Positions 1-54,906 of a stretch of 64,000 bases of DNA are shown here, piece after piece. This stretch comes from a virus. Made by a program: the position numbers and the translations under genes. Positions within the stretch are counted from its first letter, which is position 1. Every line of letters begins with the position of its first letter. Location of the stretch: positions 30,811-94,810 of IMG/VR virus record IMGVR_UViG_3300037882_002640; one strand, 5' to 3'. The notes beneath the pieces are model-generated. The model worked only from the letters and a program-made list of their open reading frames with translations. It was not told the DNA's origin and ran no database searches.

Positions 1-2
1 CG

Positions 3-11084: not shown

Positions 11085-11120
11085 AAACCCCCATGACTAA
11101 TCAAAGTCATGGGGGTTTTG
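11085..11120. terminator. Bidirectional intrinsic terminator between convergent modules
   Basis: Inverted repeat AAACCCCCATGACT / AGTCATGGGGGTTT with A-rich left and T-rich right flanks. Confidence 0.85.
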
Positions 11121-12516: not shown

Positions 12517-12743
12517 TAGAAGGGTAAAGGATTATCTGCCTCTTCATAATACTGAACGCCCCCACGAGTACCGCTGGGCAAAGATATAATGAAGTCTTGA
12601 TTTTTTGGAATCTCCATATCAGCAGCAGGTACAAGCGTTATCCGCTCATCTATGCTTTCTGGGTAGAATTCTTGGACTAACGCCCCTACAAATTTTCCAG
12701 TAAGGTCAAACAAATGACCTTCTTCGTTTAAATACAAATTCAT
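12516..12743 (-). CDS. Hypothetical protein
   Basis: Coupled to both neighbours; acidic C-terminus ending PLPF. Confidence 0.6.
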   Translation of the reverse strand: MNLYLNEEGHLFDLTGKFVGALVQEFYPESIDERITLVPAADMEIPKNQDFIISLPSGTRGGVQYYEEADNPLPF

Positions 12744-12940
12744 CTTTTTTTATCTTTGTTATGTATGGCGTGAAGGGCAGAATACCATACAAGTAGAACA
12801 AAAGTAACTACTAAAGTAAGGATTAACACCCCTGAACTTTTTATTAGTTTTATCACCCTTATAAACTCTTTTGAAGTTACAAAAGTTATAATCAAATTTA
12901 CAGTGATAAATATTAATATTAGTAGGACTAGCAGAATCAT
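12740..12940 (-). CDS. Small two-TM membrane protein
   Basis: Two hydrophobic helices and a basic tail. Confidence 0.6.
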   Translation of the reverse strand: MILLVLLILIFITVNLIITFVTSKEFIRVIKLIKSSGVLILTLVVTFVLLVWYSALHAIHNKDKKR

Positions 12941-12942
12941 AA

Positions 12943-13260
12943 TTAATATATATTTGATACTTCTTCTAGTAAATGGTTAATTAAATGCCTTCTAAAGACA
13001 AAGATGTTTTTAGAATCTAGGATTTCAGTAATCTCCTCAACGTGTAGCGCTATCCTCAGAGATACTGTATCGGGGCTACCATTAACTTTTATCGCCGTTA
13101 CATCAGCCATAAACTTGTTATGTAGGGATATAATTTGAGCGTTATAAGTTAATGCTCCTATGGCGGATAATTGTTTTTTTGGGGGTTTGCCTCTGTAGAA
13201 GGTCAAATAGCTCCAAACTATTATTAGCGCGAATATGATACTAATTATTGTTGTAATCAT
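12943..13260 (-). CDS. Membrane-anchored hypothetical protein, probable paralog of 13295-13591
   Basis: N-terminal TM; shared Y...I...H..FM..V...K..G pattern. Confidence 0.6.
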   Translation of the reverse strand: MITTIISIIFALIIVWSYLTFYRGKPPKKQLSAIGALTYNAQIISLHNKFMADVTAIKVNGSPDTVSLRIALHVEEITEILDSKNIFVFRRHLINHLLEEVSNIY

Positions 13261-13294
13261 TTTATTTCACTGATTAAATCCATTACGTAAATGG

Positions 13295-13591
13295 TTAGTT
13301 CTTTTTTTTTGATACCCAAGCGTTATTGATATATGTTTGTTCCCTAACATAATTAATATGGTAATCAGTAAGTGTAGGTATTTGATTACCATCACCACTA
13401 CGTTTGTATCTAGCCACACGGTTCATAAATATCCCATGTGCTTCTACTATAGAGGGGGTATACTTCAAAGCCTCTTCTGGGTCTAAAAATTTGCGCGACA
13501 TATTTATATCCAACGCCTTTACAAACTCATGTAGAAGGACTAATACTCCTAAGCCCATGAATGCAAGAAATACAATTTGTTTTGTGTCCAT
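13295..13591 (-). CDS. Membrane-anchored hypothetical protein
   Basis: N-terminal TM; similar to the downstream gene. Confidence 0.6.
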   Translation of the reverse strand: MDTKQIVFLAFMGLGVLVLLHEFVKALDINMSRKFLDPEEALKYTPSIVEAHGIFMNRVARYKRSGDGNQIPTLTDYHINYVREQTYINNAWVSKKKN

Positions 13592-13600: not shown

Positions 13601-13634
13601 AAAAAAGGGCCAGTACTTAAATGTACTGGCCCTA
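13601..13634 (-). terminator. Intrinsic terminator after the replication operon
   Basis: AGGGCCAGTAC / GTACTGGCCCT hairpin followed on the minus strand by a T run. Confidence 0.75.
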
Positions 13635-14093: not shown

Positions 14094-14547
14094 ATTTTTC
14101 TACTGTTAAATCAGGTATGCTCCAGACTTCTCCTGAAGGATTTAGTGTAATATCAACTCCCTTTAAAGCCCAGTACTCGACCATCGCAGGGTCTGCATCA
14201 AATATCAGCCTATTAGAGTATAGAGGATGGGTGGGGTTCCTAGGAAAGTGTTTGTCCACATAAGTCCTGTCGACTTGTGTGTATTTACCCTTAATAAAGG
14301 GTTCGACAACCTTCTTATAGTCACCCTCGCTTATAGTGAACGTATAAACGGCTTTTTCCCCGTCTCTCTGCATGTTGACGAATGTGGGGGCAGTAGAGAG
14401 TTTGTTATGTGTTTGTTCATCGAAAGTACTATATACTACCTGTAAGGTGTTACCCTCACCAATATAAGTATTTTCAAATGTTTCTGTGGTTAATCCACTA
14501 ACTCCAATGAGTGGAGTCAGGAAAGCTGATGTTTTATTGTACGCCAT
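14050..14547 (-). CDS. Hypothetical protein of the replication module
   Basis: 165-aa ORF overlapping both neighbours. Confidence 0.7.
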   Translation of the reverse strand: MAYNKTSAFLTPLIGVSGLTTETFENTYIGEGNTLQVVYSTFDEQTHNKLSTAPTFVNMQRDGEKAVYTFTISEGDYKKVVEPFIKGKYTQVDRTYVDKHFPRNPTHPLYSNRLIFDADPAMVEYWALKGVDITLNPSGEVWSIPDLTVEKYEFNGFTAWTQTST

Positions 14548-15547
14548 CGAACACGTCTAGTTTTATTACCCCTCCTGAATCGAAGAGATACTTGGGCATA
14601 TCCCAGTAGTCGTTACTGCTATGCCATAGGTAGTCGTCTAATAAGCCCTCTATACCTGGGTATGTCCTGGTGCCTATCTTTCCCCCCTTCAGACCAGCTA
14701 AACGATCGTTGGGGGAAGTGACGAATATTATTGCAGATCTTGTCGATTTCACATTTGTTTCTGCGACTATGAAAACAAAGTCGAGAAGTTTATATCCTTC
14801 CTCTAGTAAGTGCTTTATTGGGGACTGCCCACTGAGCAGCGCTTGCTCATAGAATGCACATTGTCTATAATATCCAAAGGAAAGGAAGGAATCTGGAAAA
14901 TCAAGCACAGATTTGCCTGTTGTCTTTAAATCAAAGGGCTGAATGGTTTTATCAATGTGATTAATTCTAATCCCATCTAATAAAGCTTTACATTCAACAC
15001 CTTTGAAGTCAAAATAAATATCCACCTGGTGCATTAATTCATCCCCATACTCTGACAGTTGAAAGTAACCAATTGTGGGGGGGTTTGATAGTAGTAGTTC
15101 TTTAGCTTTACTTACTGAAGCCATCATATCCTTGGTTAGGAGGATACGCTCATCCTTACTACGCACCTCGTTATAGTACGCTACAGCACTATGATCATTT
15201 CAGAACATCCCAATAACCCTTGTTAAGGAAATTTTATATCCCGATTTATTGTAGGCTTCTTCATAGTCTTCTTTTTGAGACATCGGGGATATACCTTCGG
15301 GTAAGGCGTTAACAAAATTAGCCATGAAGCTAGTCGGCTTTTCTATATCCACTACCCTAAAATCTTCCTCTCAACGCTCTGGTGAGGTTAGAAGACAATC
15401 CACTGCTGCGCCTACACTAAAGAAGGATTTCTCCTCTTCCACTATTACCCCATCCATCTGAAGTTTCATGTAGCGGGGATTTTGTAGCGCTGAGAGCAGG
15501 GAGTTTGATACCCTCTTGGTTTGGAAGTATTGTTTTATCTTGTCCAC
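14534..15547 (-). CDS. PD-(D/E)xK exonuclease-like protein (RecE/Cas4-like), with two in-frame TGA
   Basis: GTG start at 15547; in-frame TGA at 15371-15373 and 15200-15202. Motifs VSNSLL, GAAVDCLLT, CKALLD, FDLKTT, YYRQCAFY. Confidence 0.8.
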
Positions 15548-15914
15548 CTAGTTCTTTTATGATTTCTATACATTCGTCTAATTGTTTATTGTTCCTAGGC
15601 ATTAATAATGTATAAGGAGCACCTAAGGTGTGGAGCATATGTTTAAACAATTTCCACCTCAAATCGAAATCAGGGCGTCTATGCCCCTTTACCTCCATTA
15701 TCCAGTTACTACCCACAAAGTCTGGTTTATAGGTTATTGGCAAGACCAATTTCCTTTTCTTTACCAATTGCCTACCTCTTCCTTCGTAAACATCTCCTTC
15801 AAAACTGAACTGAGGCGAAAGAATTATACTCACAGGTTCGTAAGTAAAACTTATATTCGCCTCAGTCAGTTTGTCTCATGCCCTATCTTCCAAGGGGGAT
15901 CTCAATTTTTGCAT
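15417..15914 (-). CDS. Endonuclease I-like / Holliday junction resolvase (PD-(D/E)xK), with one in-frame TGA
   Basis: ATG at 15914; LRSPLEDRA*DKL...FTYEP, then YKPDF...MEVKG; TGA at 15876-15878. Confidence 0.75.
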
Positions 15915-16603
15915 TACTTTAATGACACTGGACCTCTTAGTGCCCCAGTATTTTCAATCTGCTCTACTGCTTCTTCTACCGCGTCCTCGACAATTACTTC
16001 TGCTATAGCCCCCACTATTCTATCTTCCATGGCGTTTTTTACAATGTATGGAATCAACTCTTTAGGCACTTCGCCTATTTCCAGAGTATTGGCATCCACC
16101 ACTGAGTACCCTCCATTCGGGGCTTTAGCAAGTACAACCACCGCTATTGCTAGGTCTAAAGCCCTGGCCACGCCCATAGCTGTTTTTGCAGCGTGCGGAT
16201 TCACTTGTTCGTGATTCACTACCCCATGTTTAACGTAGTTCGTAGGGTCGCCCAAGTACACTTTTCCTTGGGAAGCTGCTGCAGGACATACTGTGACAGA
16301 GGTTACGGTTTTAGGATTAACATTCGCCTGAATGATTGACCCTGGGGTTTCAGCGTGTTTACCAATGGAGGTTAACTTCTGTATGAAACCGCCTCCCATT
16401 TCGCCGATTTGACCACCTGCCATGATACGTGTACCATACCCACAATCAAGTGAATCTAATTCTCTCTCAGAGAAGGAGTTCCCGACAGGTAGATAACTTG
16501 GCACGTTGAAGCCAGTCTTCTTGGCCAACTCCATCAGCATCAATTTATCTTGTGTCAGTGCTTGGTCCTCTTCGAGGATGTTTAATAGATTTTGCATATG
16601 CAT
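15914..16603 (-). CDS. Hypothetical protein
   Basis: 229-aa ORF, TAATG-coupled to the endonuclease. Confidence 0.7.
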   Translation of the reverse strand: MHMQNLLNILEEDQALTQDKLMLMELAKKTGFNVPSYLPVGNSFSERELDSLDCGYGTRIMAGGQIGEMGGGFIQKLTSIGKHAETPGSIIQANVNPKTVTSVTVCPAAASQGKVYLGDPTNYVKHGVVNHEQVNPHAAKTAMGVARALDLAIAVVVLAKAPNGGYSVVDANTLEIGEVPKELIPYIVKNAMEDRIVGAIAEVIVEDAVEEAVEQIENTGALRGPVSLK

Positions 16604-16611
16604 ATTAACAG

Positions 16612-16905
16612 TTAAAATTTTAAAATTTCAAAATAAATCGTGTCCGCTATGGATTCTCCTTGGTCGTACCTGTAGTACTGCATGGAGTCCTGCATAATTT
16701 CTTGCACTACTATACGCCTATCGAAACGAGTGACCCCGAATTCTACCAGCGTATCCCTCACCACCTCTTCTCCCCTGTCAGAATGCTCTGTGTAAACTAT
16801 TGTTGTTTTTTGAGTGTACGTTGTGGGGTTAACAGCATGTACTAAAAGTGCAGTTAAAAAAGCAGTCACGATAATCACGATGATTGCGCTAATATGGGAC
16901 TTCAT
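16612..16905 (-). CDS. Exported or membrane-anchored hypothetical protein
   Basis: Hydrophobic N-terminus. Confidence 0.55.
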   Translation of the reverse strand: MKSHISAIIVIIVTAFLTALLVHAVNPTTYTQKTTIVYTEHSDRGEEVVRDTLVEFGVTRFDRRIVVQEIMQDSMQYYRYDQGESIADTIYFEILKF

Positions 16906-17893
16906 AGTTTGAATTTGTTGTTTTTAGCACTTTGGACAAGCGCTTTTTTAAGTAGCGAAATGAAAAGTGGCTTTTCCGCAATTTCACTAAATCTGATATG
17001 TCCTTCGCTGCATATAAGAACATTAGTTTTAAACGATATTCTCCGCTCAATCTGTGTCCATGCTTAAGACCGCTCTCATCGTTATCATACAACACTACGA
17101 TATGTTCAAACCTTTCTTTCAAATTGTTGAATAAATCCTCAAAAATCCCATCTCGATAGCCCATACCCTCTCCATTAAACGAAATCGCAGGAATCCCCAT
17201 TTCATAGAGAACCATCACATCCTTCATAGACTTTGTAACTATTAGAAGTTTGCCCTTTTTAGGGAGTTGCTGTAAACCAGCTATGTCGTCTATAGACGAA
17301 TTGCCTCTTCATTTCTTAGTCTTATCTGGACTCAATGGCCTATATAATTTGATTCTTCCTGATGGAAAGTAATAAGCAAAAATTGGATTGTCGGTAGTCG
17401 CTCGAAATTGTATTTTCTTATTTCTGTACACGCTCTGGACGCCATGTACATTAAACTTCTTTAGAGTCTCTGGCGTGATCCCAAACAGGGAAAAGTATGG
17501 GTGTAATTTTTCGGAAACTACTACATCAAGCTCCACATCCTCTTCCTCCAACTTGCTTACATTTACAGCCTTAATCAAGTTTCGATCTTCTCTTATTTTC
17601 TCCAACGCATGTGCATAAGTGAGGTTGTACTTGCACCGAACTATTGATGCCCACGAGTAGTGCACTCCAGTCGCAAAGTCATGAAAGAACAAGGTATCAT
17701 TTTTACTGTAGTAAAAACCGCAACTAGGATTATTATCTTTCCTTAGTGGATTGCGGAAAAGCACACCCAATTTTATCTCTAGACCTAAATAGAAGCTAAG
17801 AATTTGCTCCTGAGTTAAGTCCAGGTAGGTTTTGGTTGTTATTATTCAGTCTTTAGCTCTGAATTGTAGTGATTGGTTCGTATGGTTCGACAC
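16889..17893 (-). CDS. DNA primase (Zn-finger plus TOPRIM), with two in-frame TGA
   Basis: ORF-track pieces 17309-17770 and 16889-17227 share a frame and join through KK*RGN (TGA 17309-17311). A second TGA at 17846-17848 (AKD*II) follows a GTG at 17893, so the start is less certain. Motifs NPLRKDNNPSC, TKSMKDVM, YDNDESG. Confidence 0.85.
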
Positions 17894-18128
17894 TTGATTT
17901 TGTTATTTCTACTGTATTTAATCTCTTTGTTTCCATAAGATAACACTCAATTTGCCATATTGGGCAGATGTACGGGGACACTACTCGTATCCCCGTACCA
18001 CCTACTTTTTTGTTTAGACTGTTAACTCCTGAATAGGAGAACCTTACGACTACAAATTCATTGATTTGCTCTTGAACTACTTGTATTATCTCCTCGCTGT
18101 TCTTCTTTAAGAAATCTGATACTTTCAT
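17853..18128 (-). CDS. Hypothetical protein
   Basis: 91-aa ATG ORF in the operon. Confidence 0.55.
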   Translation of the reverse strand: MKVSDFLKKNSEEIIQVVQEQINEFVVVRFSYSGVNSLNKKVGGTGIRVVSPYICPIWQIECYLMETKRLNTVEITKSSVEPYEPITTIQS

Positions 18129-18283
18129 ATAGCGTGGCTATTGGTGGGTAGAATTTGCGGACATAAACATCCTTTCTATTCACCCTAGTGGAATGATGCA
18201 TTTTTAATACTAGAAACAGGAAAATTCCAGCTTCTCGTGTACTCAGCCCCAGACTTCTCATAGTTTCATTCCACACCTCAAGG

Positions 18284-18871
18284 TTAGAATGGGTGGTCAG
18301 GGGCTTCTTCTTTTTTACCGTCTGAGTTGCTACTTGCAATGTCTTTGAGTTCTTTTTGTGAAAAATTTAAAGTTGAGGGGACCCCTTCTGTGTACAATTC
18401 CATATACCCATTGTATGCTGGTATGTTAGCATACACAGTGGTTCCACCCTCTTTCTTTTTGGTTACTTTAGGTACAACCTTTAGATTTACCTTTGTCCCT
18501 TTAAAGCCGTTGGTTATAGTGATTGCTTTTTCTGCAAATTCCGTGTACGTTTTCGCGGTTAATTTGTCTATGCTCGCTTCGTCCCCTACTACACTTAGTA
18601 CGTAGGTCAGTGCGACCACATTTCTGTGTTGTTCCCGTTCAAGCGCTTCGGCGGGAGTTTCCATCACTTTATCAGCCTTCTCGAAAGGCATTGCGCCAGT
18701 TGGTTTGAACAACCGTTTACGCGCAAACCGTTTTTCTGTATCTATAAATGTGATATCTATGGAGTCTCCATCCTTTACCAGTCCGCTAAAGGTTACACCT
18801 TCGTGTATCCCTACTGGTATACTACCTACCGACGCTAGGTCGCTCTCGAAAATTAATTTTGCTTGAAACAT
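18284..18871 (-). CDS. Putative single-stranded DNA-binding protein
   Basis: Follows the Sak4-like ATPase; acidic tail ending EEAPDHPF. Function is inferred from context. Confidence 0.55.
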   Translation of the reverse strand: MFQAKLIFESDLASVGSIPVGIHEGVTFSGLVKDGDSIDITFIDTEKRFARKRLFKPTGAMPFEKADKVMETPAEALEREQHRNVVALTYVLSVVGDEASIDKLTAKTYTEFAEKAITITNGFKGTKVNLKVVPKVTKKKEGGTTVYANIPAYNGYMELYTEGVPSTLNFSQKELKDIASSNSDGKKEEAPDHPF

Positions 18872-18875
18872 TGTT

Positions 18876-19535
18876 TTATCCTTCTTTTTCTATAATTGTG
18901 TCCACAACGAACTTCAAGTCGTTGGGAATTCTTGGTGGGAATACTCCCATCACAGACCTAGCCTCATTTATTCCGTTAGAATTGGTCTGTAATTCATAAA
19001 GTGGCTCTCCAGCGTCAAAAGTTAGATCTGTATAGAGATTGTATGTGAGAAATGAATTCAGGTTAATCTTAGTGAGCTTCTTGCCATTAGTTTTTATCCT
19101 TAAGCATTGCGCACCATTCATCTCGTAAGCCTCTACATGAGACATTACGATTACTGTAAAATCTTCCCGACTCAAGTCTCTAATTGCTTTAAACAGATCA
19201 TAGACCTCGCTTGCTAAGTCAGCCCATTGGTCTCTTGATGGGTTCTTGAGTATCTCCATCTCTGCATTTGTCATTAAAGTAGAGATGGTGTCAATAACTA
19301 CTACCTTAACTTCTGGCACCTTATCATGGATACTCTTTACAAAAGTCTCAGCTTGCTTTGCAGTGCTGACCTTAAAGTAATTTTTATTTGCAGTATTGTA
19401 ATCTTTCTTTCACCCCACCCAAGCCATTCCTTTGCCATCGCCATCTAGGAATACTGTGCTTTTAGGATCTAACGTCATTACTCCTGTGGTCTTCCCTGTT
19501 GATGGGAATCCCGAAATCATTATTAATCTACTCAT
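18876..19535 (-). CDS. AAA_24/Sak4-like P-loop ATPase, with one in-frame TGA
   Basis: ATG at 19535; Walker A GFPSTGKT lies upstream of the TGA at 19410-19412 (MAWVG*KKDYN); Walker B VVVIDT lies downstream. Confidence 0.85.
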
Positions 19536-20526
19536 TTGGGTTTCTCTCGCTTATTTGGTTCTTATTGAATTGCTCTATACATGCTATCACTACTGGAGTT
19601 CCAAACCGCTCCTTAATAACATGCAGATATATCATGGATTTATTTAGAGTGGGGTGTATTACTGGAAGTCCATGTGGAAACCCATCTCTTGGGGGCCCAT
19701 AGTATGCACCCATTCCTGAAACCACCACAGGCCTATGAAGTATCACAACATAATCAGAGCATTGATACGCTGAAGATGATGCGAATAAGTCATTCTGGGT
19801 GGGGTAGTGTAATTTAGGGTTTGATACCCTCTCGTTACTTTGTATATCACGATTAAGTTGAGACAAAAGTACGAACATTATTTTGATATTTTCGTGTGAA
19901 AAATGTTTTTTTAATTCCACGAGTGATAAATAAAGTTCGTCCACCCTTTGCTTTTCAGCCTCTCCTTTATTGTTTTTAGTTAGGAGGGTGTGATCAATAG
20001 TCACTACTAATCCTTTGTTTTCACTTTGGAGATTTCTAACCTCAGCAAAATTAAGTATTGTCTGAGTAATATCTCTCGCTGTACCAACCTTATCTACATA
20101 GAATATAGGCAGCAAAGCAATATTCTCAACTTCATTCTCAATTTTGTTGTATAAATCCTGTGATATTGGAGTTTCAGAGGAATATATTTCCTTTAGGCCT
20201 ACACCTAAACTGCTAGATAAATCTCTAGCAATTTGGTCTTCCATGCGCATCTCGAACTCAAACGAAAGTATTTCAAAATTCTGGTCTTTGTTCAACGCAA
20301 TGAAATCTCTTCGCAACTCTGATAAGAATGTGGACTTACCACTTCCTGGCAAGCCCGCAACTGTTGTTATCCTTCACCAATCAAGGCCATTCAAGAAAGT
20401 CTTGTTAAACTTACTTTTAGAGGTCTTAAGTGACTTTATCTCCCCTGTTCGTAGAGAATGGATAAATTTCTTGGAAGAGGTAGCTGCATGAGATATGTGT
20501 CTTACATTAAGCGAGATCTGTTCCAT
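19528..20526 (-). CDS. dnaB: DnaB-like replicative helicase, with one in-frame TGA
   Basis: ATG at 20526; GLDW*RITTVAGLPGSGKS (TGA 20374-20376); motifs FEFEM, IDHTLL, LSQLNR, KERFG. Confidence 0.88.
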
Positions 20527-21046
20527 AGGTTACCGTTCTTGCTGGGGCTGCCACTTCGTAATCTAGAAACGTTTTAGACTTCAGAAAACTACTAGGCCCC
20601 TTCATATATGTAACTTTGTTTTCAGTATAGGAAGTTTTCTTTAGATATTCATAGTAGGCTTTAAGCCCTTCTATTATCACATCGAGGTCATACCTTAACC
20701 TCGCTTTAGTAAACTCTAGTTTAGATTCATCTCGATTTGTCCGTATGACTCTAGTTGACTCAAATCTGCCAAAACTATTGTCAAGAGGGTATGCCTTTCA
20801 GAACTTCTCGAACTCATCCTCATCAGATTCTACCCCACCTTCTAATTCTGTTACTAAAACATAGAAAGTGTTGGTGAGGTTACCAGCCCTATCTAAAAAC
20901 CCTAAAGTTTTCATTTTATTCATACTCTCTGTTGTTGGGTAGTTACCCCAATCCTCGTCTAAATACAGAGAGTAAAGATACGCAAATTCTTCTAAATCAA
21001 GAAGTAATTTCGTAACCGTTTTGTATAATTTATTAGTAAAATACAT
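20507..21046 (-). CDS. Putative replication initiator / replisome organizer, with one in-frame TGA
   Basis: FEKF*KAYP (TGA 20798-20800) restores the F..FW..YP motif of phage initiator C-terminal domains; open to TAA at 20507 with YMKGPSSFL; lies directly upstream of dnaB. Confidence 0.7.
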
Positions 21047-21299
21047 ATTCTTTTATGCCTTCTCGACCATTCGTTATATGGTCGAGTTCCGCTCTTTTTA
21101 GATCATCTATTGCTTTACCCCACGTTTCCCACAAATCTTTAGTCTGTTGGGAACCGTTGCTGGAGACCAGTACTTTCCGTTTACCTCCCTTCAAATAGTA
21201 ATATATCTGAACATTCCATAAACCCTCATTTCTGTAGACATGTATTTTGTAATCCTTGTAGTTGAACTTTATGTTATCTTTGATATTTTTTTTTGCCAT
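21033..21299 (-). CDS. Hypothetical protein
   Basis: 88-aa ORF in the operon. Confidence 0.6.
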   Translation of the reverse strand: MAKKNIKDNIKFNYKDYKIHVYRNEGLWNVQIYYYLKGGKRKVLVSSNGSQQTKDLWETWGKAIDDLKRAELDHITNGREGIKEYVFY

Positions 21300-21301
21300 A
21301 C

Positions 21302-21529
21302 CTAGTAACGAAATAATATTTTTTCCAGGGATTCACATTCATCCTGTATATTGTAGTACAGAGAGAAATTTATGTCATACTCCCTAATAGATTTAGCTTC
21401 ATCCTTTTTTCCTGGGTAGGAGCCTACAAAAAAGTAACATATCACAGTGTTTGTATTGTTACTTGGCCTGTACTGGCTAGTTACCTGCACGCAAAACCTA
21501 CCAATATGGATAACTTTTATCTCCTCCAT
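21302..21529 (-). CDS. Hypothetical protein
   Basis: 75-aa ORF coupled to the upstream gene. Confidence 0.55.
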   Translation of the reverse strand: MEEIKVIHIGRFCVQVTSQYRPSNNTNTVICYFFVGSYPGKKDEAKSIREYDINFSLYYNIQDECESLEKILFRY

Positions 21530-22578
21530 TAGAAAGGGTAATCCAAATCAAAATCAATTTTTCTTTGTAAATTGAAATCAGGTTTAATAGTTTCAAGTTT
21601 TAGCACTTTGGTTACATTATGGTTATGAAATACCATCTTGTAGATGTAGTCTCTTTTGTTGTTAAAGACATAAACCACTTTGTCTGCGCTTCTTTTTACT
21701 ATGATGGGGGCCTTACCTTCGTGATTGCAGATCTTGCAAAGGTATGACTGGCCTTTTAAGTCCCAGTCTAGTTGTTCCCTGCTAAGCATCAAGTCAATTT
21801 CTTGTACTATATCACATTCACAGGTGAAGTGATTATACCTTTGAGTAACTCCTATACCTATAGTGTATGGGCTCATTCTTGAGTCGTGTGCTCTTTGGAT
21901 CGCTGTACATTCACCACAAAGATATGTATAATCTGCGATGACTGCAAATTTTCTCCAACTTTTTTCAGAGTTATCAATGAGATAATCTTCGTTGCAGTGT
22001 GCGCACACTCTGCTGTAACTCCTAAAGGAAAAGAGGTTCTCTCTTTTCCTACCGCTTGTATTTTTGATAAATGTTTCACAACTATCACAAACTTTAACTC
22101 TGCCTCCTGTAGTTTCGTTGTTCAAGTTAGAGTATTCCCTAGATACTGGTATATTTACTATTATCGAAAACATAGGCATGGCAGTTTCACAGAGGATACA
22201 GTACTCACTAAGGTCCATACCATCATAATATTTAGCATGTGAGTAGTAGTTACCTAATCGTGGAAGACCATAATTATGTATCATAGTATACCTGTCCAAG
22301 ATTTTATGATTCTTTCTTTCCATGACTTTCTTTTTTTCTGTTTTGATGCTATTTTGACATTCTTCGCAGGCAAATATGTGAAGGTTAAGTTCATTATACT
22401 CACTTGTAGACATAGAGTGTGTTGTCCTCACTTCATTTACGTGGAAGTAACACTCTCCCATTCTCGCCCCTGCCGTGACATTAGGCAACCATGTGTCATC
22501 AACAAACCTAAAGTCATGTTCAATGTACCGTCTTAGCCTCCAAGGGTATCTGGGGAGGTCGGAATTGATTTCAACCAT
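21529..22578 (-). CDS. Multi-CxxC (zinc-finger-like) hypothetical protein
   Basis: CEEC, CILC, CDSC, CAHC, CGEC and CKIC motifs. Confidence 0.65.
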   Translation of the reverse strand: MVEINSDLPRYPWRLRRYIEHDFRFVDDTWLPNVTAGARMGECYFHVNEVRTTHSMSTSEYNELNLHIFACEECQNSIKTEKKKVMERKNHKILDRYTMIHNYGLPRLGNYYSHAKYYDGMDLSEYCILCETAMPMFSIIVNIPVSREYSNLNNETTGGRVKVCDSCETFIKNTSGRKRENLFSFRSYSRVCAHCNEDYLIDNSEKSWRKFAVIADYTYLCGECTAIQRAHDSRMSPYTIGIGVTQRYNHFTCECDIVQEIDLMLSREQLDWDLKGQSYLCKICNHEGKAPIIVKRSADKVVYVFNNKRDYIYKMVFHNHNVTKVLKLETIKPDFNLQRKIDFDLDYPF

Positions 22579-23690
22579 ATAGGTTTAATTTTTAAAGTTT
22601 TAGTTTTTACCCATTTTTCTTCCCTTGTTCCTTCAGTGTAAAGATTAAAGAATAAGGCTTTCTTATCCTTACCTAACCTCACTGTACGCCCAAGAGCTTG
22701 GGTAAATACCAGTAACGATGAGTCTCCTGACACTGAAATGCCAGCATCTAGACTAGGAATGTCTAACCCTTCATTTAGAGCATCAACACCTATTAACCTA
22801 CTTACTTTACCAGTTTCCATCCTTTCAAGGACCTCTGCTTTTGCTTTCTTGCTCATCTTAGAATGGTAAACTGCTGAATTAGGTAGTAGTTTTCCGCAAA
22901 TTTCAGCTTCTTTAATACTTTTGAAGAAGATTATCCATCTTCTCCCTGGGTATTGATTAACCAACTTTATAACGGCGTCCATCTTGTTACCGTTACTTCA
23001 TACCGCTTGCTTCCGCATAGTCATTGCCCCCCAAAATTCCTTACTAGCACTACTAACCTCCTTATCAGGATGATTTCTATAGTGTTTAGCGTTCTCGAAG
23101 GGGGATGAATATTCCAGGTTTTTTTCTTTGGCTAATCTCGCTAAATTCTTAGACGCTTGAATTAATTTAGCGTTGAACACTGAGTACCTCTTCCCATTCG
23201 ACTTATCGTTGGGTAAGGCTATGTTGTATACCGTGAAATCACTTATTGCCCCATCTTCTAGGGCTTCATCAACTGTTTTCTCCTTTGCTATTGGCGCAAT
23301 GCTCACCATAAAATCCAGGTACTCTAGATTAGATGGGGCTGTTGCTGTTAACAGTAAGGTGTAGTTTCTGCTTATGTTGGAGTATAAACTCCTGTAGGCT
23401 GGGGAAAGGCTTCGGTGCGCCTCATCAACTATGAGTAGATTAACGCTTTTCTTCTGCTTGTACGCTGAATTAATTGTTGTAACCTCAGCCTTTCCCCCCA
23501 CCACTTTTTTTCATGCCTCAACTAAATTTACTCTAGATGAGACGATCAGTACTTCTCCTCCAATAAGCTCTACTGCCATTTGACCGACCCTGGTCTTACC
23601 ATATCCTGTCGGGAGAAGCACTGTGACGTGTTTATGTTCTACTAATTTATTTACCGAATCCAATTGCTCGGCATCTCTGATGGTTTTCAT
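22533..23690 (-). CDS. Superfamily 2 (DExH) helicase, with two in-frame TGA
   Basis: ATG at 23690; LPTGYGKT, TGA 23511-23513 (LVEA*KK), DEAH, TAT, TGA 22998-23000, NEGLDIP, QALGRTVR, all in one frame. Confidence 0.88.
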
Positions 23691-24547
23691 TAGTTATGGG
23701 CATTACATATTTTATATTTAGCCGATATTTGGGTATTACACCCAGACACCTGGCATTCGTGTGTAGTTAACTTACAGCCTCTGCATATTTCGCCTCCTGA
23801 AGATACCCGACTTGTTGCGCACCTAGCACAATAATGTATTTTTCTGCTGTCGCAATTGTCACATAAACCTTCACGAGTCAAGTCATATCCTCCAGGTAGC
23901 CTAACATATGCGCCACATCTCAAGCAGTTATCTGCTGAATCCTTTTCACATGTATTGCAGAGAGTCTTGGTGTAGTCATTACTCTCGAATCTGCACTTAC
24001 AATTAGAGCAAACATTTGAATGCTCTAGACAGAACTTAGATCCATTTATGGTGTGTTCACTGCATATTAAGCAGTAATTTGGGAAAATACTCCCACAATG
24101 ATCGCATTCTCTGTCTTTACCTAAGTATACGTCACACTTTGGGCATTTCCTGTTACAAGACTTGCATGTAGTATCGGCCAATAAATCATCCCCACAACCG
24201 GGGCATATACCAAAGGTACAACCTCTGCATATATTATCCGAATTTATTTTCTTAAACAAATTACACTTAAAACATTTACCTAGTTTAGGGCCGTTATCAA
24301 CGCTTACACAATCATGGACAGTCGTAGAAGGGTATACTTCCGCACAAGTTTTGCACGTTACATGATGCTCTTTTAAGCAGTCAATACACATTGCTTTTGC
24401 AACTGCTCTGTCTTCTGCAGGGCTTACCCATACACCCACTGTTAAATTGGCCGTCTTACCACACTCTTGGCAAGGACTGTGTATACACATGTCGCATAGT
24501 TCTTTAGTGGAACTAATAAGTGTATCACATTTAAAGCATGTGTTCAT
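23690..24547 (-). CDS. Cysteine-rich protein built of tandem CxxC knuckles
   Basis: About 20 CxxC motifs in 285 aa. Confidence 0.7.
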   Translation of the reverse strand: MNTCFKCDTLISSTKELCDMCIHSPCQECGKTANLTVGVWVSPAEDRAVAKAMCIDCLKEHHVTCKTCAEVYPSTTVHDCVSVDNGPKLGKCFKCNLFKKINSDNICRGCTFGICPGCGDDLLADTTCKSCNRKCPKCDVYLGKDRECDHCGSIFPNYCLICSEHTINGSKFCLEHSNVCSNCKCRFESNDYTKTLCNTCEKDSADNCLRCGAYVRLPGGYDLTREGLCDNCDSRKIHYCARCATSRVSSGGEICRGCKLTTHECQVSGCNTQISAKYKICNAHN

Positions 24548-24636
24548 ACAAACACACTGCGCACCTAAGGTGCACTTCTTTACCTTCCTGCCAAAGTGTG
24601 GCGACGACCTATTTATACATGTGAATGTACGGGTAA

Positions 24637-25647
24637 CTAGTTTGGGAGTACTATACCTAGGCCACCATCAAGGATGGAATCCTCAAAGAGAGCTCTAACA
24701 GCGTCGACTTCGGGTTTTTTACCCTCGTTAATCCTGTTGCTGATTTCAGCAAATGTTAGCATTAGTTTGATTGCAGATTCTTTTTCTGCTTCATCATCAG
24801 ATGACGAGTATCTATCCTTTGCTTCCACCACCTCTGCGTATATCTTGTCTGTTTTGGTCTTATCAGTTATACCGATATACTTAAGCAAATTAAGCACAAC
24901 AGATTTATCCTTGTCTGGATTCTTGGGCTTATCATCTCCGCTACTAGCAGGGGTTGTACTTTGCTGCCCTTTATCATCCTTCATGTAGTTCTCGCTATTA
25001 GTTCCTAGTGAGTAGAATATCTCCACCACTAAGATTAAATAGTGTACTACTATAGTGGCGATCATTAAGATTATTGGAGCAGCTAGTATTGCCCAAGGAG
25101 AGGTGTAGACCCTTAATCCCATTTGCAAGCACTCTTGCACATACTCCTGTTTATTAGTGAACGGGGATATCCATGAGTAAAACAATCCTAGGTGTGGAAT
25201 TTCTCCCAAACCCGCAGCCATTATGGTCAAGTTGAAGTAGGGCGGTAGAAACAGCCCCAAAAAAGAAACCCCCATGATAATGACGTTTATCAACATTGTC
25301 CCGAATTTCGACTTAATAAAACTGTCATAGATTGCTGCCATGGTGGAGGCAATAATCATACCAGATACAAACTGGTAAAATCCTAGGATTATATGAGTCA
25401 TAATCCTAGCTATAGGATTAATTTCCACCTTAGCCCCCGCTAAATGGGTAGTGGCCGCAACAAGACATTCCCCCACTGTGGCTATCAGTAGGATGACTAG
25501 CAACCACCCCGAAAAATCATTTCGGAATTGGTTCAGAATTAAATCTGTCAGTTTTTCATCCGGGTTTGAGTTTTTTAGGCGGATGAGTACTATGGCCACG
25601 CCAATAATCCCGCAGACAGCGAGAATTGAAATTAATAGATCCGACAT
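24637..25647 (-). CDS. Polytopic membrane protein
   Basis: At least five hydrophobic segments plus a soluble C-terminal domain. Confidence 0.7.
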   Translation of the reverse strand: MSDLLISILAVCGIIGVAIVLIRLKNSNPDEKLTDLILNQFRNDFSGWLLVILLIATVGECLVAATTHLAGAKVEINPIARIMTHIILGFYQFVSGMIIASTMAAIYDSFIKSKFGTMLINVIIMGVSFLGLFLPPYFNLTIMAAGLGEIPHLGLFYSWISPFTNKQEYVQECLQMGLRVYTSPWAILAAPIILMIATIVVHYLILVVEIFYSLGTNSENYMKDDKGQQSTTPASSGDDKPKNPDKDKSVVLNLLKYIGITDKTKTDKIYAEVVEAKDRYSSSDDEAEKESAIKLMLTFAEISNRINEGKKPEVDAVRALFEDSILDGGLGIVLPN

Positions 25648-27495
25648 TTATTTTGTCCATATTGTAGAGTGAGAAGTGTCACTCTTTGGTGAGCAATTTT
25701 TTAGTAAGAGTTTCCCAGCCTGCATCATGGCGGAGCTAACTACTTGCTTTACTTTTTCCACATCTTCATCCCTGCACCTAATAACCCATTCATCATGGAT
25801 TAAGATACATATCTCGAAATTGTGGATACTGCTTAATTTTCTTAAGAGATTACCAGCTAGTTTAATCATATCCGCTCCAGTTGACTGAATTGGGTAATTA
25901 AATGCTTTTCTCCTTACTTGGGATTCAAACTTATTAATCCATTCCTTCATCGCTTGGTTCTCGTAGCCCCTTGCAATTAAGTCCGAATAAATTTTCTTAG
26001 CTTTTAGGTACTCGTCATGCCCTTCAAATAGTATTCTCCTTTTAGAGTAATTGTTGGTTATTACGTAACCATCTATTAGGGCCTGTGCGGCCTTCTTTTC
26101 CAATCCCTCTATCAGAGTAGGGTACAACGCTTTAACGTCCTCTACGGCCTTTCTAGCCACCTTCATAGGCAATCCGAATTGACTTGCAATCTTTCCTGGA
26201 CCACCACCATACAGAATTGTAAATACGATGGTTTTCGCAATCTGCCTATGTAGTGATGGAATCATATTCTCACCCCAGACTACACTTGCAGTTTTCAAAT
26301 GCAAATCAACTCCTTCCTTAAACCAGTCAAGAATTTTAGTCTCCCCATATAAATCCGCAGCTATTAACACCTCTTGTGAGGAGTAGTCAGCAGTTACAAA
26401 GGAATAACCTTCTCCTGCTTCAAAACAGTTGCGGTACTCATTCATCCTAGGAATTTGCTGCATATTAGGATTAGACGATGAAGTTCGTCCCGTGTCCACC
26501 ATTTGCATGTAACTACTATGGATTTTGCCAGTAAGTGGGCTAATCTTTGATAGAAATTTCTCACCATATGATGTCTTAAGTTTCATTAACTTCTTATACT
26601 CCAAATACAAATGTACAAGTTCATTATCAATCTTAGACAGGACAGTGGAGTTTACCCCCTCTTTTATTTCACCTGTTTTCTTATCTATAAACGAAACTGA
26701 TACACCAGTATTTTTCATCAAATCTAGAACTTGCTTTGGCGAGTTCCAGTTGATATCCCCATACACCGAAAGTTTTTCCAGAGACTTTTCAATTTCATTT
26801 TCCTGGTGCTTAATTAAAGCATTTCATTTATCGCGGTTAACATCCACACCATTAAGTTCCATGTCCGCTAAAACCAAAATAAATTCCTTTTCGACTAGGT
26901 TGTAGACATCCAGTAACCCGTCTTTTTCCATTTTAGCATGTAGGACTTCATATAGTGTGTACGTGTATTCTGTGTCTTTTGCAGCATATGCTGCTTGCTG
27001 TGGGGTTAGCTTCCCACCAAATGTTCGTCGGATGTCCTTAGTTACAGTGTAATCAAATAAGTCAGTCTGTAGCGTATACGCATACTTGTCAACATATTCC
27101 CTAGCCATACTTTCTAATGAAAAAGTACCTTTAGGGTTTGTTAAACCTAACTTAATTAACTGCCCCATAACCATGGTATCATCTACATCATTATGTACGT
27201 ATCCTGTGTGTCTTTTTATCACAGAATAATCGAATTTGCCATTATGGCAAATCCACCCTATCTTTTTTAACTTCCCTAGGAGCATCTTAGAAAATCCTTC
27301 CTGAACATCCACTAGTATAGTATAATCTTTACCTGTTATCTGTACAGTAAGAATCTCTTTGGCCTCATCCCAAGTAGTTTCCGTGTCCAGGGCTACCTTA
27401 TCTTTTATTTTACTACAAGCCTCAACTAAACTAATATTAATAAAGCCGTCAATCTTATAGTCCCCTACGAAATACCTAGTAAATTTCTTTGCCAT
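25648..27495 (-). CDS. polA: Family A DNA polymerase (3'-5' exonuclease plus polymerase), with one in-frame TGA
   Basis: Exonuclease motifs LDTET, HNGKFD, YAAKD; GVDVNRDK*NAL (TGA 26824-26826); then TGRTSS, ADYSSQE, RQIAKTIVFTILYG, IHDE in the same frame. Confidence 0.9.
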
Positions 27496-27781
27496 CGATT
27501 TCTAAAAATCTGTCTATTTTGTAAGATGAGCTCGTAAACTCATCCATATTCCTTACCACTCCCTTACTAGATACCACCCTACGTATCTTCCTAATGCAGG
27601 TGAAATTATTTAACTTCACCTTTCACTTATCGTGTTGATAGGTAACTTGGTATTTGTCAGGCACCTCATCTAGGATGAAGGGAAGGCCCTTACCCATGTA
27701 TTCCACAAGTTCAGCCTCCCCTTCGTAACCTAAATTTTGATAAGGGTCAAGGTACACTGGTACCATCTGCCCTACCTTCAT
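27476..27781 (-). CDS. Hypothetical protein with one in-frame TGA (missing from the ORF track)
   Basis: ATG 27781, TGA 27623-27625 (HDK*KVK), TAG 27476; fills the gap between its neighbours. Confidence 0.65.
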
Positions 27782-27783
27782 AC

Positions 27784-28374
27784 TTACATTTCTATATGTA
27801 TGTGACTTCCTGTAGCGCTGGGGTTGTAAAATATATAAGGCTTACATTCCTCGCGTGTAGCGTAAGTTTCCACCTCTTTACATCCTGGCTTGCCTTCGAT
27901 GTACATAGTTAGCCCATGTTCTTGTAGCCATTTCTTACCAGATTCTGATACTAAATAATCTACAAGGTCTTGAGACAAATCTAAGTCGCAGGCTTTGCCA
28001 TGTTCATGTTCTGACTTTGTCCCCCAATTCCTACGAAGTGAGGTTATCATTGCCTTGGGACCACTGTACTCCCCCAGTGCTGTTTTTAAGGCACTACAAA
28101 TATCCGTGTTTACACCTCTATACAGTACAAACCCTAGAAAGTTAGCTTTGCAGCTACCGAATTTTTTACTTTTCGGATTCTTTCATGGGTGTATTTTCAG
28201 TAGTGTATCTAGTTGTAGTTTAATGGAGTCTGTTACTCCACCATACTCTAAAACCTCCATTTTAAGGTGTTCAAGAGCATCACGTTGGTCGTCGATAATC
28301 CTATTTTGTTTTATTTGAAAACTAATAAGTGCTGCGACCATTATACCCTGTAGTGCCAATCGTATGTCATTCAT
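27784..28374 (-). CDS. Peptidase M15-like cell-wall peptidase with N-terminal anchor, with one in-frame TGA
   Basis: 28183-28374 and 27784-28050 join in frame through HP*KNP; motifs ITSLRR, SEHEHGKACD, HIHIE. Confidence 0.75.
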
Positions 28375-28419
28375 ATGTTTGCTGTCTTGTATTTACTAGT
28401 GCTCTAGTTCCAAGCACTT

Positions 28420-28707
28420 CTAGTTAGCGGGGTATAAAAGCTTGTAAGCTTTGTTTACTACAAAGAACTCCGCCACTTGGGCACCTGTATTTGGATGGTT
28501 ACGAGGAACAAACTTTTCGACTATTACGCCGTCTGATTTATTTCCGTTCCTATCGTAATACAAGTTAACGCCCCTTTTATCAGTAGTTCATGTCAGTCCC
28601 ACCTCGCTGTATGACACATTTAGCGCCATTCCAGTCCTGGCGGACCTCAAAACTACCAATCCACTGTTACTTAAGTAAGTAACAGCTCGCTCATCAATAT
28701 TGTTCAT
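28420..28707 (-). CDS. Hypothetical protein with one in-frame TGA (missing from the ORF track)
   Basis: ATG 28707 directly after the upstream stop, TGA 28588-28590 (GLT*TTD), TAG 28420. Confidence 0.65.
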
Positions 28708-28708: not shown

Positions 28709-29269
28709 TTAACTTAGAATTGAAACAGGCCTTGGTCCATCCAAGTCCTCTCTTGGCAGTAGTAATTTCTGGAACTCTAAGTCCCATGAAATATACTCCC
28801 CACCTATCAACATGGCGTTGTTAGCCACGAAGCATCTCTTTTTATCATCGAATTGGATAGGATCGCGATAATCGCTTATCTTCACTATCCCCCCTTCGAT
28901 AATTAGTTTTACTGTCAACTCGTTCGCAACCTGCCACATGCAGGCCATCATAATAAAGGAGTTCCCTTCACATATTATCCTTACACTACGGTCATATAAA
29001 TATCTGTAATGCTTGTCACGTACAAACCCTTCTATGTGGTTTGGCCAATTACCAATTGGGGGTTTCCCATGTGGGTAATTGAAGAAGTGTGGGATATTGG
29101 TAGAGAACCCCTCAAAGTGGGGAATGTACAGGTAGTCCATTTTACTGGTACTGTCCCCAGGTAAAATTAACTTAACACTGTATCCCAACTCTAGGAGTTT
29201 GGATATATCGGGCAACTTTAATGGGTCCACCAAGACCCCTATTGTTACCTGTGAATTATTTTTGATCAT
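28709..29269 (-). CDS. Hypothetical protein, possibly a degenerate class I glutamine amidotransferase-like fold
   Basis: Strand/helix pattern IGVLV...GYSVKLI...MDYLYIP, but no intact nucleophile motif. Confidence 0.45.
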   Translation of the reverse strand: MIKNNSQVTIGVLVDPLKLPDISKLLELGYSVKLILPGDSTSKMDYLYIPHFEGFSTNIPHFFNYPHGKPPIGNWPNHIEGFVRDKHYRYLYDRSVRIICEGNSFIMMACMWQVANELTVKLIIEGGIVKISDYRDPIQFDDKKRCFVANNAMLIGGEYISWDLEFQKLLLPREDLDGPRPVSILS

Positions 29270-29436
29270 TAGCCAGTTTCTTTAGGCGAGTCAATAACTC
29301 ATACAAAAGTATGGATTTATTTTGACTGCACAAATTTATTTCCTTAAAGAAATTTTTTTTTGTGTGTTGAGGAGCAAATACTCTATGCATGCCCTCTTCT
29401 TCTGCTATAAATATACCTAGGCGGTTCATTGCCAAT

Positions 29437-43493: not shown

Positions 43494-43577
43494 GAGAATG
43501 CCCTACAATCAATTATTATTTAATTCTGATATACTGATACCAAAAATAAAAGATAATTGATTGTGGGTAGGTTTAAA

Positions 43578-54905: not shown

Positions 54906-54906
54906 T

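Follow-up and report, generated by a model that had tools for sequence, protein, structure and literature searches.

The replication genes of an environmental crAss-like phage of 95 kb write about one third of their tryptophan codons as UGA, and TGA has three uses in this genome: it is a sense codon in the replication block, a stop codon in the genes that flank the block on the same strand, and it is absent from the late arm. The window analyzed here is a stretch of 64,000 nucleotides from this phage (G000). On balance, the sequence patterns favor a real but partial suppression of UGA by tryptophan, in competition with the host RF2; low-copy replication proteins would tolerate it, and selection would act against it in other genes.

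Phage identity and genome layout

The window derives from a Crassvirales phage of the phi14:2-like (Steigviridae-like) type. The crAss-type profiles for TerL, portal and MCP were matched (phrog_6681, phrog_6547 and phrog_11589, respectively), and the two-arm Crassvirales layout is present, with a gene order, GroEL included, as in phi14:2. TerL is 33% identical to the phi14:2 protein, and its next matches are to Flavobacterium and Bacteroides crAss-like phages. The hosts of the closest cultured relatives are Cellulophaga and Flavobacterium, which use the standard code. The host of the window phage is presumably also a standard-code Bacteroidota, a code that we infer from the TGA stops of the flanking genes and from the hosts of the cultured related phages.

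The plus strand carries the end of the late arm (1–11068), where two ORFs of 5264 and 1454 amino acids occupy the position expected for the giant virion RNA polymerase, and a second region (50071–64000) with small genes followed by GroEL, TerL, portal and MCP. TGA is absent from the former, both as sense and as stop codon, and the latter has no in-frame TGA and terminates its genes exclusively on TAA or TAG. The replication block (28707–14534) lies on the minus strand, as do the accessory arm (28709–49865), which includes a lysozyme gene, two AAA ATPases and tRNA genes, and a set of small genes (11204–13591).

The nearest named relative by TerL, phi14:2 (NC_021806; 10.1101/2020.03.07.982082), likewise has small genes followed by the replication module on one strand, and the RNAP module, tail genes, MCP, portal, TerL and GroEL on the other. 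Unlike the window phage, it follows the standard code, TGA terminating 9 of 58 early and 2 of 44 late ORFs, and it encodes a family B rather than a family A polymerase. In phi14:2, which is also the nearest cultured relative, the replication module falls in the early class, and the entire early arm forms a single temporal class (10.1101/2020.03.07.982082). That single class does not itself explain the difference in code between accessory and replication genes.

In-frame TGA codons in the replication block

The initial annotation had listed 14 in-frame TGA codons in 11 genes, and every one of these positions reads TGA on the minus strand. There is no frameshift and no internal TAA or TAG, as had also been described, and each TGA lies in an ORF bounded solely by TAA or TAG. 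When genes were re-called with translation table 4, the coding density of the block increased from 0.84 (code 11) to 0.99 (code 4), while the other modules were unchanged.

Matches to PHROG profiles cross the TGA codons, and homologs also span the TGA-carrying genes, in agreement with the claim that read-through restores the major replication proteins. The genes, all on the minus strand, encode a family A DNA polymerase, PolA (25648–27495, TGA at 26824; phrog_17, 1.8e-93), an SF2 helicase (22533–23690, TGA at 22998 and 23511; phrog_16, 1.7e-39), a Sak4-like ATPase (18876–19535, TGA at 19410; phrog_2872, 5.9e-39), a DNA primase (16889–17893, TGA at 17309 and 17846; phrog_12622, 4e-32), a DnaB-like helicase (19528–20526, TGA at 20374; phrog_19, 2e-15) and an exoVIII-like nuclease (14534–15547), in which the match to phrog_412 (5e-17) extends across both TGA codons (15200 and 15371). 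The suggested initiator-like protein (20507–21046, TGA at 20798; phrog_270, 8.7e-7) and the second nuclease, which is DUF1064/resolvase-like (15417–15914, TGA at 15876; phrog_190, 7e-5, and PF06356), were also matched, albeit more weakly. By contrast, no M15 peptidase could be recovered: the three remaining genes (27476–27781, 27784–28374 and 28420–28707, with TGA at 27623, 28183 and 28588, respectively) had no match in searches of Pfam, PHROGs and PDB sequences, and they are unassigned genes with homologs in relatives.

We compared the residues of related proteins at each of the 14 columns. The expectation that the TGA codons occupy tryptophan positions held for most of them, with Trp as the top residue at nine sites and F, Y or W at three, so that 12 of the 14 columns contain Trp or another aromatic residue. 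The PolA site at 26824 is W in 79 of 81 loci and in 48 of 60 database homologs, and alignment A1 shows no variation there. Trp is also found in 33 of 41 sequences at 17309 in the primase, in 7 of 7 at 20798 in the initiator-like protein, and in 6 of 6 close relatives at 19410 in the Sak4-like ATPase, three of which have a TGA there as well. Both columns in the exoVIII-like nuclease are W in close relatives, with F in distant ones at 15371, and the DUF1064/resolvase-like site at 15876 is W in the relatives G001 and G002, and distant loci have Y. In the SF2 helicase, the column at 23511 is W or F, and close relatives have Y at 22998, where distant ones have D. The columns in the three unassigned genes are W (2/2) at 27623, Y (6/6) at 28183 and W (8/8) at 28588. 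The second primase site, 17846, has no alignable column in close relatives. As a whole, the columns support TGA as being best read as Trp. The single clear exception is 20374 in the DnaB-like helicase, where relatives have G or N rather than W, and this column counts against the Trp reading.

The block probably forms part of one transcription unit that spans approximately 29.3 to 13.6 kb, within which UGA accounts for about 28–35% of the Trp codons. A strong intrinsic terminator on the minus strand (13606–13633; 11-bp stem and T run) closes the unit. At the upstream edge of the TGA-sense block, 35 nt upstream of the gene at 28709–29269, a minus-strand motif (29304–29334) fits the Bacteroidota promoter consensus (TTTG, 19 nt, TAnnTTTG) and is the sole full match in the non-coding DNA of the window; being a single match with no conservation in relatives, it is only suggestive.

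TGA in the flanking genes and in the late arm

The claim that recoding is confined to the replication block was borne out: the ratio of TGA to TGG is 14:36 in the block as compared to 0:71 in homology-covered late genes (Fisher p = 1.2e-6). Within the block TGA is used as sense only and terminates none of the 19 genes, as compared to 12 of 42 genes in the same-strand flanks (p = 0.012). In the accessory arm, TGA is the stop codon of 9 of 32 genes (e.g., 29437, 38349, 38584, 39522, 41204, 41749, 42048), including the lysozyme gene, which contains no sense TGA. Beyond the terminator TGA is a stop codon again, in 3 of the 10 genes counted between 11204 and 14547 (11452, 11793, 12740). As many as three TGAs at the N-terminal ends of accessory-arm genes (30769/30841, 37070 and 39097) may be sense codons.

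The late arm of the window phage has no TGA, as compared to about 119 TGG, a more extreme pattern than the 5–10% in relatives, and a model based purely on expression cost may therefore be insufficient. The lack of TGA stops in late genes is uninformative, since the standard-code phi14:2 has just two among its 44 late ORFs. TGAs near TerL (57385) and MCP (62904) were considered as sense codons and rejected, as both are located upstream of the real start codons.

TGA in related phages

In-frame TGA codons in replication genes were also identified in other IMG/VR relatives (G001, G002, L002–L004 and L006). Four related lineages are loaded with TGA in these genes, in the cleanest case at least six-fold over the late genes; in G002, there are 27 TGAs in 4927 covered replication codons as compared to at most 13 in 15237 late codons. 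The relatives have no TGA in MCP, portal or GroEL and carry a small number in late proteins of low copy, among them TerL with one to four. Nested inside the same clade is G003, which uses the standard code.

At conserved Trp columns, the choice between TGA and TGG is independent between lineages (10/22 vs. 18/48, p = 0.6), and all 22 such columns are TGG in G003. The base that follows a sense TGA is A in 12 cases and G in 2 in the window phage, A in 13 and G in 7 in G001, and A in 13, G in 7 and T in 2 in G002. Pooled over these three genomes, the ratio of purines to pyrimidines at +4 is 54:2 after sense TGA, as compared to 88:48 after TGG (p = 1.1e-6). In bacteria, tRNA-Trp misreads UGA especially when followed by A, and suppression is poorest with U at +4 (PMC5289835).

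Models for UGA decoding

We infer partial suppression, together with its timing and its decoder, along the following lines. UGA would be a working Trp codon within the stretch from about 29.3 to 13.6 kb of the early-strand arm, decoded by partial suppression against the host release factor 2 rather than by clean reassignment, and such competition would account for the observed placement of sense UGA almost only before a purine, mostly A. Read-through would cost yield at each UGA, so that UGA and UGG could drift freely in low-copy replication proteins while UGA would be selected against in high-output virion genes. The accessory genes are probably translated outside the suppressing state; they still terminate on UGA, which would thus be unusable there as a sense codon. 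Every recognizable replication enzyme would then depend on the UGA-reading capacity of the cell.

It had been proposed that the need for read-through acts as a translational gate on the start of replication. A purpose-built gate, in which the UGAs are kept so that replication awaits a UGA-decoding state made by the phage, as a timer or a host-compatibility checkpoint, is a tentative alternative. It would account for the presence of TGA in 8 of 8 recognizable replication enzymes as compared to 3 of 11 unknowns in the block (p = 0.003, uncorrected for length or Trp content), and for the match of the block edges to a Bacteroidota promoter consensus and a strong terminator. The TGA stops and tRNA-like genes of the upstream accessory arm and the late arm wholly without TGA also fit such a gate, as does the location of all 14 TGAs of the window phage within the first 60% of the genes (p = 0.02 vs. 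TGG). This 5′ bias was, however, not seen in G001 or G002, and TGA positions are unconserved, toggling with TGG like near-neutral synonymous codons. Given this toggling and the TGAs that relatives carry in TerL and other low-copy late proteins, tolerance by expression level is no worse a fit than a dedicated switch.

Two decoders are candidates for the partial suppression favored here: the host tRNA-Trp(CCA), by near-cognate reading, and an aberrant tRNA of the phage itself. No canonical tRNA(UCA) was found in G000, G001 or G002 with ARAGORN and Rfam, and no RF1 or TrpRS gene with Pfam among 20 accessory-arm proteins. A suppressor tRNA(UCA) is not strictly defining, because most code-4 phages have no detectable one (Mgcod, 10.1101/2022.06.29.495998; Borges et al., 10.1101/2021.08.26.457843). 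The aberrant tRNA (44272–44350, minus strand), an unconventional candidate UGA reader, bears CUUCA at the anticodon register and then an insertion of 6 nt. We consider it doubtful that this tRNA is a UCA suppressor once the insertion has been processed or remodeled, which would make the switch phage-encoded. Its acceptor, D and T arms are intact (Rfam tRNA, 52 bits; typed by ARAGORN as Leu(caa)), its body resembles the phage tRNA-Arg(UCU) of L099–L101, whose anticodon becomes UCA by a single base change, with a compensatory change in the anticodon stem, and in the zeta-group phage Lera, tRNAscan typed a SUP-TCA tRNA as Trp or Arg (PMC12386605). Against this, UCA is hidden in a 9-bp hairpin with a 3-nt loop in the predicted minimum-energy fold, an Arg-type body gives no reason to expect charging with Trp, and the recoded G001 and G002 have no homolog, with only a different aberrant tRNA in G002. 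Nor is a bacterial route known for the processing of a 6-nt tRNA insert, which further counts against this decoder.

In G002, PolA and a helicase contain three TGAs each. Unaided near-cognate read-through of such genes would give hardly any full-length protein, so some enhancer of UGA decoding must exist, although none was found.

A code that is specific to the transcription unit seems unlikely. Here, UGA reading would be on only for the replication unit between the promoter at about 29.3 kb and the terminator at about 13.6 kb, switched by the non-canonical phage tRNA, whose 6-nt insertion would mask UCA until processed or remodeled. If true, replication would pass a code-change checkpoint that is reclosed or irrelevant for the virion genes, the reverse of the “late-gene lysis timer” that has been suggested in other recoded phages.

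It is highly improbable that code 4 applies throughout the genome and in its host, with the flanking TGA “stops” being Trp codons near the true TAA or TAG. Read-through past these stops adds just 2–29 residues, and the late arm has no TGA stops, as this model would have it. But the 12 flank genes have their only TGA in the last 2–20% of the ORF, none of them internal with homology support as compared to about 49 TGG, and four of the flanking TGAs (38349, 41749, 11793, 12740) are ATGA stop/start overlaps. The +4 purine bias, which implies release-factor competition, and the standard code of Cellulophaga and Flavobacterium also argue against it.

The reading of these genes as disrupted or split, whether as pseudogenes or through errors of assembly or sequencing, or of UGA as selenocysteine or glycine, hardly seems credible and, apart from the Gly/Asn column at 20374, is already contradicted by fourteen TGAs with no TAA, TAG or frameshift across 11 conserved genes, by the same habit in four independent related lineages, by the nearly invariant Trp at 26824 in PolA, by columns with Trp or aromatic residues from which Cys is essentially missing, and by the absence of extra RNA structure, such as a SECIS hairpin would give, in the 60 nt downstream (mean MFE −10.6 vs. 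−9.8 kcal/mol after TGG, p = 0.63).

Comparison with known recoded systems

The polarity is opposite to that published for recoded phages (Yutin et al., 2021, PMC7886860; Mgcod, 10.1101/2022.06.29.495998; Borges et al., 10.1101/2021.08.26.457843), as the initial annotation had proposed: the reported concentration of recoded codons in late structural and lysis genes is not matched by 0 late TGAs versus 14 in the replication block. In the crAss-like phages of the Yutin and Mgcod studies, one block likewise uses TGA as Trp and another is standard, with the change tracking gene blocks, and a suppressor tRNA is often undetectable (3/17 code-4 genomes; Mgcod). Those phages, of the gut beta, delta and zeta groups, have recoded late virion genes and standard or dual-coded replication and transcription genes, whereas the window phage, from an environmental phi14:2-like lineage, has a recoded replication module, a TGA-free (“dual-coded”) late arm and a third, same-strand gene set that stops at TGA.

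The gut phages described by Borges et al. (Agate, Jade, Sapphire, Topaz and Lak; 10.1101/2021.08.26.457843) also read TGA as Trp in standard-code hosts and have close standard-code relatives. Their replication genes are “variably” recoded, mostly so in Lak phages, so that the recoding of replication genes is by itself no novelty. Every clade shown uses the alternative code heavily in structural and lysis genes; in contrast, the structural genes of the window phage have no sense TGA, and its single lysozyme gene stops at TGA. Lera (PMC12386605) similarly reads TGA as Trp, also in a helicase gene, but its recoded genes are mostly structural, and a canonical tRNA(UCA) is present.

Read-through of UGA by bacterial tRNA-Trp (PMC5289835), including a tRNA-Trp with a 4-bp anticodon stem (PMC13092985), resembles the present case in that UGA-A is favored and RF2 competes. 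Such read-through is known at single sites with low efficiency, or as a property of host tRNAs, whereas 14 sites in 11 essential genes imply an efficiency well above ordinary leakiness. What is new here is the purine, mostly A, after sense TGA and the free swapping of TGA and TGG between lineages.

Implications

Stop-codon recoding in phages is usually explained as a delay on late structural and lysis genes that lasts until a suppressor is present. In these phages, UGA stands for Trp in the replication module and is kept out of the abundant virion proteins, so a timer acting on late genes cannot account for recoding in general. Both the free toggling and the purine, mostly A, that almost always follows a sense UGA point to incomplete suppression against the host release factor. 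For genome annotation, gene callers that use the standard code break every replication enzyme of these phages, and a single pass with code 4 wrongly extends a dozen accessory genes. The placement of recoded codons may reflect the loss of yield that a gene tolerates, a view that would be applicable to all recoded phages.

UGA in the replication genes

The initial annotation had listed 14 in-frame TGA codons in the replication block (14534-28707, minus strand), and all 14 positions (15200, 15371, 15876, 17309, 17846, 19410, 20374, 20798, 22998, 23511, 26824, 27623, 28183 and 28588) indeed read TGA on the minus strand, each within an open reading frame bounded by TAA or TAG. Profile matches extend across the TGA codons in PolA, the SF2 helicase, the Sak4-like ATPase, the primase, the exoVIII-like nuclease and DnaB, and weaker matches do so in the initiator-like protein and a resolvase/DUF1064-like protein. 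The remaining three TGA-bearing genes have homologs in related phages and no assigned family; an M15 peptidase, which had been proposed, was not found in Pfam, PHROG and PDB sequence searches of these three. When genes were called again with code 4 instead of code 11, the coding density of the block rose from 0.84 to 0.99, while that of the other modules was unchanged. At 15417-15547 (minus strand), the nuclease gene, which starts at 15547, shares 131 nt with the upstream DUF1064-like gene, which ends at 15417; the two are read in different frames, and homologs support both. Another TGA, at 15954, was rejected as a sense codon, as it lies upstream of a TAATG-coupled start.

We compared the residues at the TGA positions of the 11 proteins to those in 81 IMG/VR loci gathered by PolA alignment and in the whole records of three relatives. 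The loci were collected by an alignment-based search; searching IMG/VR for exact PolA peptides recovered one distant locus only. The TGA at 26824 in PolA aligns with Trp in 79 of the 81 loci and in 48 of 60 database homologs. Trp was also found in 33 of 41 sequences at 17309, in all sequences at 20798 (7/7), 28588 (8/8) and 27623 (2/2), and predominates at 19410 and, among close relatives, at 15200, 15371 and 15876. The column at 23511 contains Trp or Phe, and no alignment was obtained for 17846. The expectation of Trp at these sites holds in so far as no other single residue accounts for the columns nearly as well as Trp, but close relatives have Tyr at 28183 and 22998, and the column at 20374 is Gly/Asn. 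The aligned columns exclude Gly as a general reading of TGA. They also exclude selenocysteine, for which no SECIS-like structure was identified 3' of the TGA codons. Comparative evidence of this kind indicates that the replication block genuinely uses UGA to encode Trp.

Partition of TGA along the genome

Within the block, TGA accounts for 14 of the 50 Trp codons and terminates none of the 19 genes. In the accessory arm (28709-49865), which is located upstream on the same strand, TGA is the stop codon in 9 of 32 genes, as it is in 3 of 10 genes beyond the terminator at 13606-13633, with four ATGA stop/start overlaps over both flanks (TGA stops in flanks vs. block, p = 0.012). No homology-supported sense TGA was found in either flank, with at most three ambiguous N-terminal cases. 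The late arm, which encodes the virion proteins on the plus strand, has no TGA as compared to 71 TGG in about 12,800 homology-covered codons (p = 1.2e-6). Sense TGA is thus confined to the replication module, as had been suggested from the sequence. Two apparent late-gene sense TGAs, at 57385 and 62904, are both 5' of the true start codons. The late arm is also devoid of TGA stops, which might be taken to mean that suppression persists late, but these missing stops carry no weight because the late genes of phi14:2, a phage with the standard code, have only 2 in 44.

The lysozyme gene (39522-40367, minus strand; PF00959, 7.8e-11) is located apart from the virion genes, in the accessory arm on the early strand. 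It lacks in-frame TGA codons and has TGA as its stop codon, with a further TGA and also a TAA occurring within 12 codons.

The sole full match to the Bacteroidota-type promoter consensus in the non-coding DNA of the window (29304-29334, minus strand) is placed in the 167 nt that separate the first gene of the block from the last gene ending in TGA, and the strong terminator closes the block at its other end. These signals suggest that the TGA-sense region would be a single transcription unit, although the promoter is a single match and is not present at the equivalent boundary in the three relatives G001-G003. The replication module of phi14:2 is early and transcribed by the virion RNA polymerase (10.1101/2020.03.07.982082). 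The two arms converge on a hairpin (11085-11118), a perfect palindrome of 14 bp with T runs on either strand, which is likely to be a bidirectional terminator.

Phage identity and related lineages

The window corresponds to bases 30811-94810 of one 94,810-bp contig, which has no terminal repeat and an open reading frame interrupted at the contig end. PHROG profiles identified GroEL, TerL, the portal protein and the major capsid protein (MCP) on the plus strand. The best match to TerL is from Cellulophaga phage phi14:2 (33% identity), followed by Flavobacterium and Bacteroides crAss-like phages, and the gene order is as in phi14:2, including GroEL upstream of TerL. The GroEL gene (55859-57427, plus strand; phrog_5725, 6e-131) lies directly 5' of TerL, as it does in phi14:2, and its stop codon overlaps the TerL start. 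PolA is at most ~27% identical to that of any INPHARED phage, and megablast gave no nucleotide-level match in INPHARED. The likeness to phi14:2 combined with this divergence identifies the phage, as judged from its sequence, as a distant, Steigviridae-like member of the Crassvirales, which is probably of environmental origin.

The closest PolA proteins, P0001 and P0003, are 54-56% identical. The PolA proteins of the closest IMG/VR loci are 34-37% identical, and these loci are syntenic and likewise contain TGA in replication genes, with 1-3 in-frame TGAs per replication gene in G001, G002, L002-L004 and L006. In G002, 27 TGA codons were counted in 4927 covered codons of replication genes, and at most 13 in 15237 codons of late genes. 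The MCP, portal and GroEL genes of the relatives are free of TGA, and TerL contains 1-4. G003, in contrast, follows the standard code, and genes ending in TGA are found throughout. The PolA tree has the topology (this phage, (G003, ((G001, G002), (L002, L003)))), with support values of 100/99 for the clade and 91/88 for the G003 fork. The nested position of G003 implies either one loss or two gains of recoding. It is unlikely that the module was acquired horizontally from a code-4 source because the GC content is uniform and the syntenic relatives are recoded too.

Codon context and exchange of TGA and TGG

The base 3' of the sense TGA is A at 12 and G at 2 of the 14 sites in this phage (background A, 34%; p = 1e-4), as compared to A after 11 of 36 TGG codons. 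The corresponding numbers are A 13, G 7 and T 2 in G002, and A 13 and G 7 in G001. Pooled, the purine:pyrimidine ratio is 54:2 after sense TGA versus 88:48 after TGG (p = 1.1e-6). It has been reported that +4A makes UGA especially liable to misreading by tRNA-Trp and that +4U gives the least efficient suppression (PMC5289835). A +4 purine bias would not be expected unless decoding were in competition with a release factor, and the observed bias thus argues for such competition.

At conserved Trp columns, a relative has TGA at 10 of 22 positions where this phage has TGA and at 18 of 48 where it has TGG (p = 0.6), while the standard-code G003 has TGG at all 22 of the TGA columns. That the choice is independent between lineages points to TGA and TGG being near-neutral synonyms inside the replication genes. 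The individual sites were rejected as conserved signals, as their positions are not kept across lineages. No downstream RNA structure, whether read-through-stimulating or SECIS-like, distinguished TGA from TGG sites. A bias of TGA towards the 5' end of genes was significant in this genome, but in neither G001 nor G002, and was dismissed as a general feature.

Candidate decoders

No canonical tRNA(UCA) was identified with ARAGORN and Rfam in this genome, G001 or G002. A tRNA gene at 44272-44350 is normal in its acceptor, D and T arms, and its body is close to those of phage tRNA-Arg(UCU) genes; its anticodon arm contains CUUCA followed by six extra bases, and the predicted fold locks UCA in a 9-bp hairpin. 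This tRNA may act as a suppressor that is masked or needs processing, or it may be dead. Another tRNA in G002 (L085:2433-2509) has an anticodon region that is 5 nt too long and is unlike the former; aberrant tRNAs therefore recur in the clade. A Pistol ribozyme is located at the start of the accessory arm of G002 (L085:88-148; 63 bits, E = 3e-9), the arm that contains this tRNA. In an Rfam scan of 11000-56000, which includes 48500-49000, none of the hammerhead families reached E <= 1. Of 20 accessory-arm proteins searched with Pfam, none matched a release factor, a TrpRS or an enzyme that modifies tRNA. The host tRNA-Trp is a candidate decoder, possibly of the type with a 4-bp anticodon stem that has been described (PMC13092985).

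Other RNA genes are unusual as well. A fourth tRNA-like gene (47614-47692, minus strand), missed by ARAGORN and scoring over the gathering threshold in Rfam (tRNA, 34.5 bits), is well formed in its acceptor and T arms, and its anticodon arm, with the loop CUUCUAA (UCU), is perfect, while the D arm is almost missing and the variable region is 22 nt. Two features of the gene called Lys(UUU) at 42953-43036 (minus strand) are odd for a tRNA-Lys: the variable arm is long and of class-II type, and the anticodon loop (UUUUUUG) is all-U. A TAnnTTTG box (43541-43548, minus strand) is located 48 nt upstream of tRNA-Met (43419-43493), and comparable boxes are found ahead of further RNA genes of the ORF-poor 42.7-49.3 kb region; they may be host-type promoters for RNA genes.

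Implications for replication and decoding

In published recoded phages, recoded codons occur mainly in late genes, with replication genes standard or dual-coded (PMC7886860; 10.1101/2022.06.29.495998; 10.1101/2021.08.26.457843). Replication genes are variably recoded, and mostly so in Lak (10.1101/2021.08.26.457843), and Lera has a recoded helicase (PMC12386605). The polarity is reversed here, as had been proposed, and a limited literature search revealed no case of recoding restricted to replication genes in combination with a TGA-free virion arm. Nor did it reveal a +4 purine bias at recoded TGAs; the context bias and the toggling between TGA and TGG are new observations that bear on the mechanism.

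We suggest that UGA in the block would be read as Trp by partial suppression in competition with RF2. UGA would then drift freely where the loss in yield is bearable and be removed from virion proteins that are abundant. The genes of the accessory arm stop on UGA and avoid it as a sense codon, and so are probably translated outside the suppressing state. The timing of this state, like the candidate decoders, is inferred. The cost model fits incompletely: 5-10% of the late Trp codons are TGA in the relatives versus none in the late arm of this genome, which would leave room for a time-limited or unit-limited decoding state. The initial annotation had proposed that read-through could act as a translational gate on replication. 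A designed gate is the less likely reading, as the TGA positions are unconserved and toggle with TGG, but the central point of that proposal holds: with UGA serving as a Trp codon in the replication block, replication itself would depend on UGA being read.
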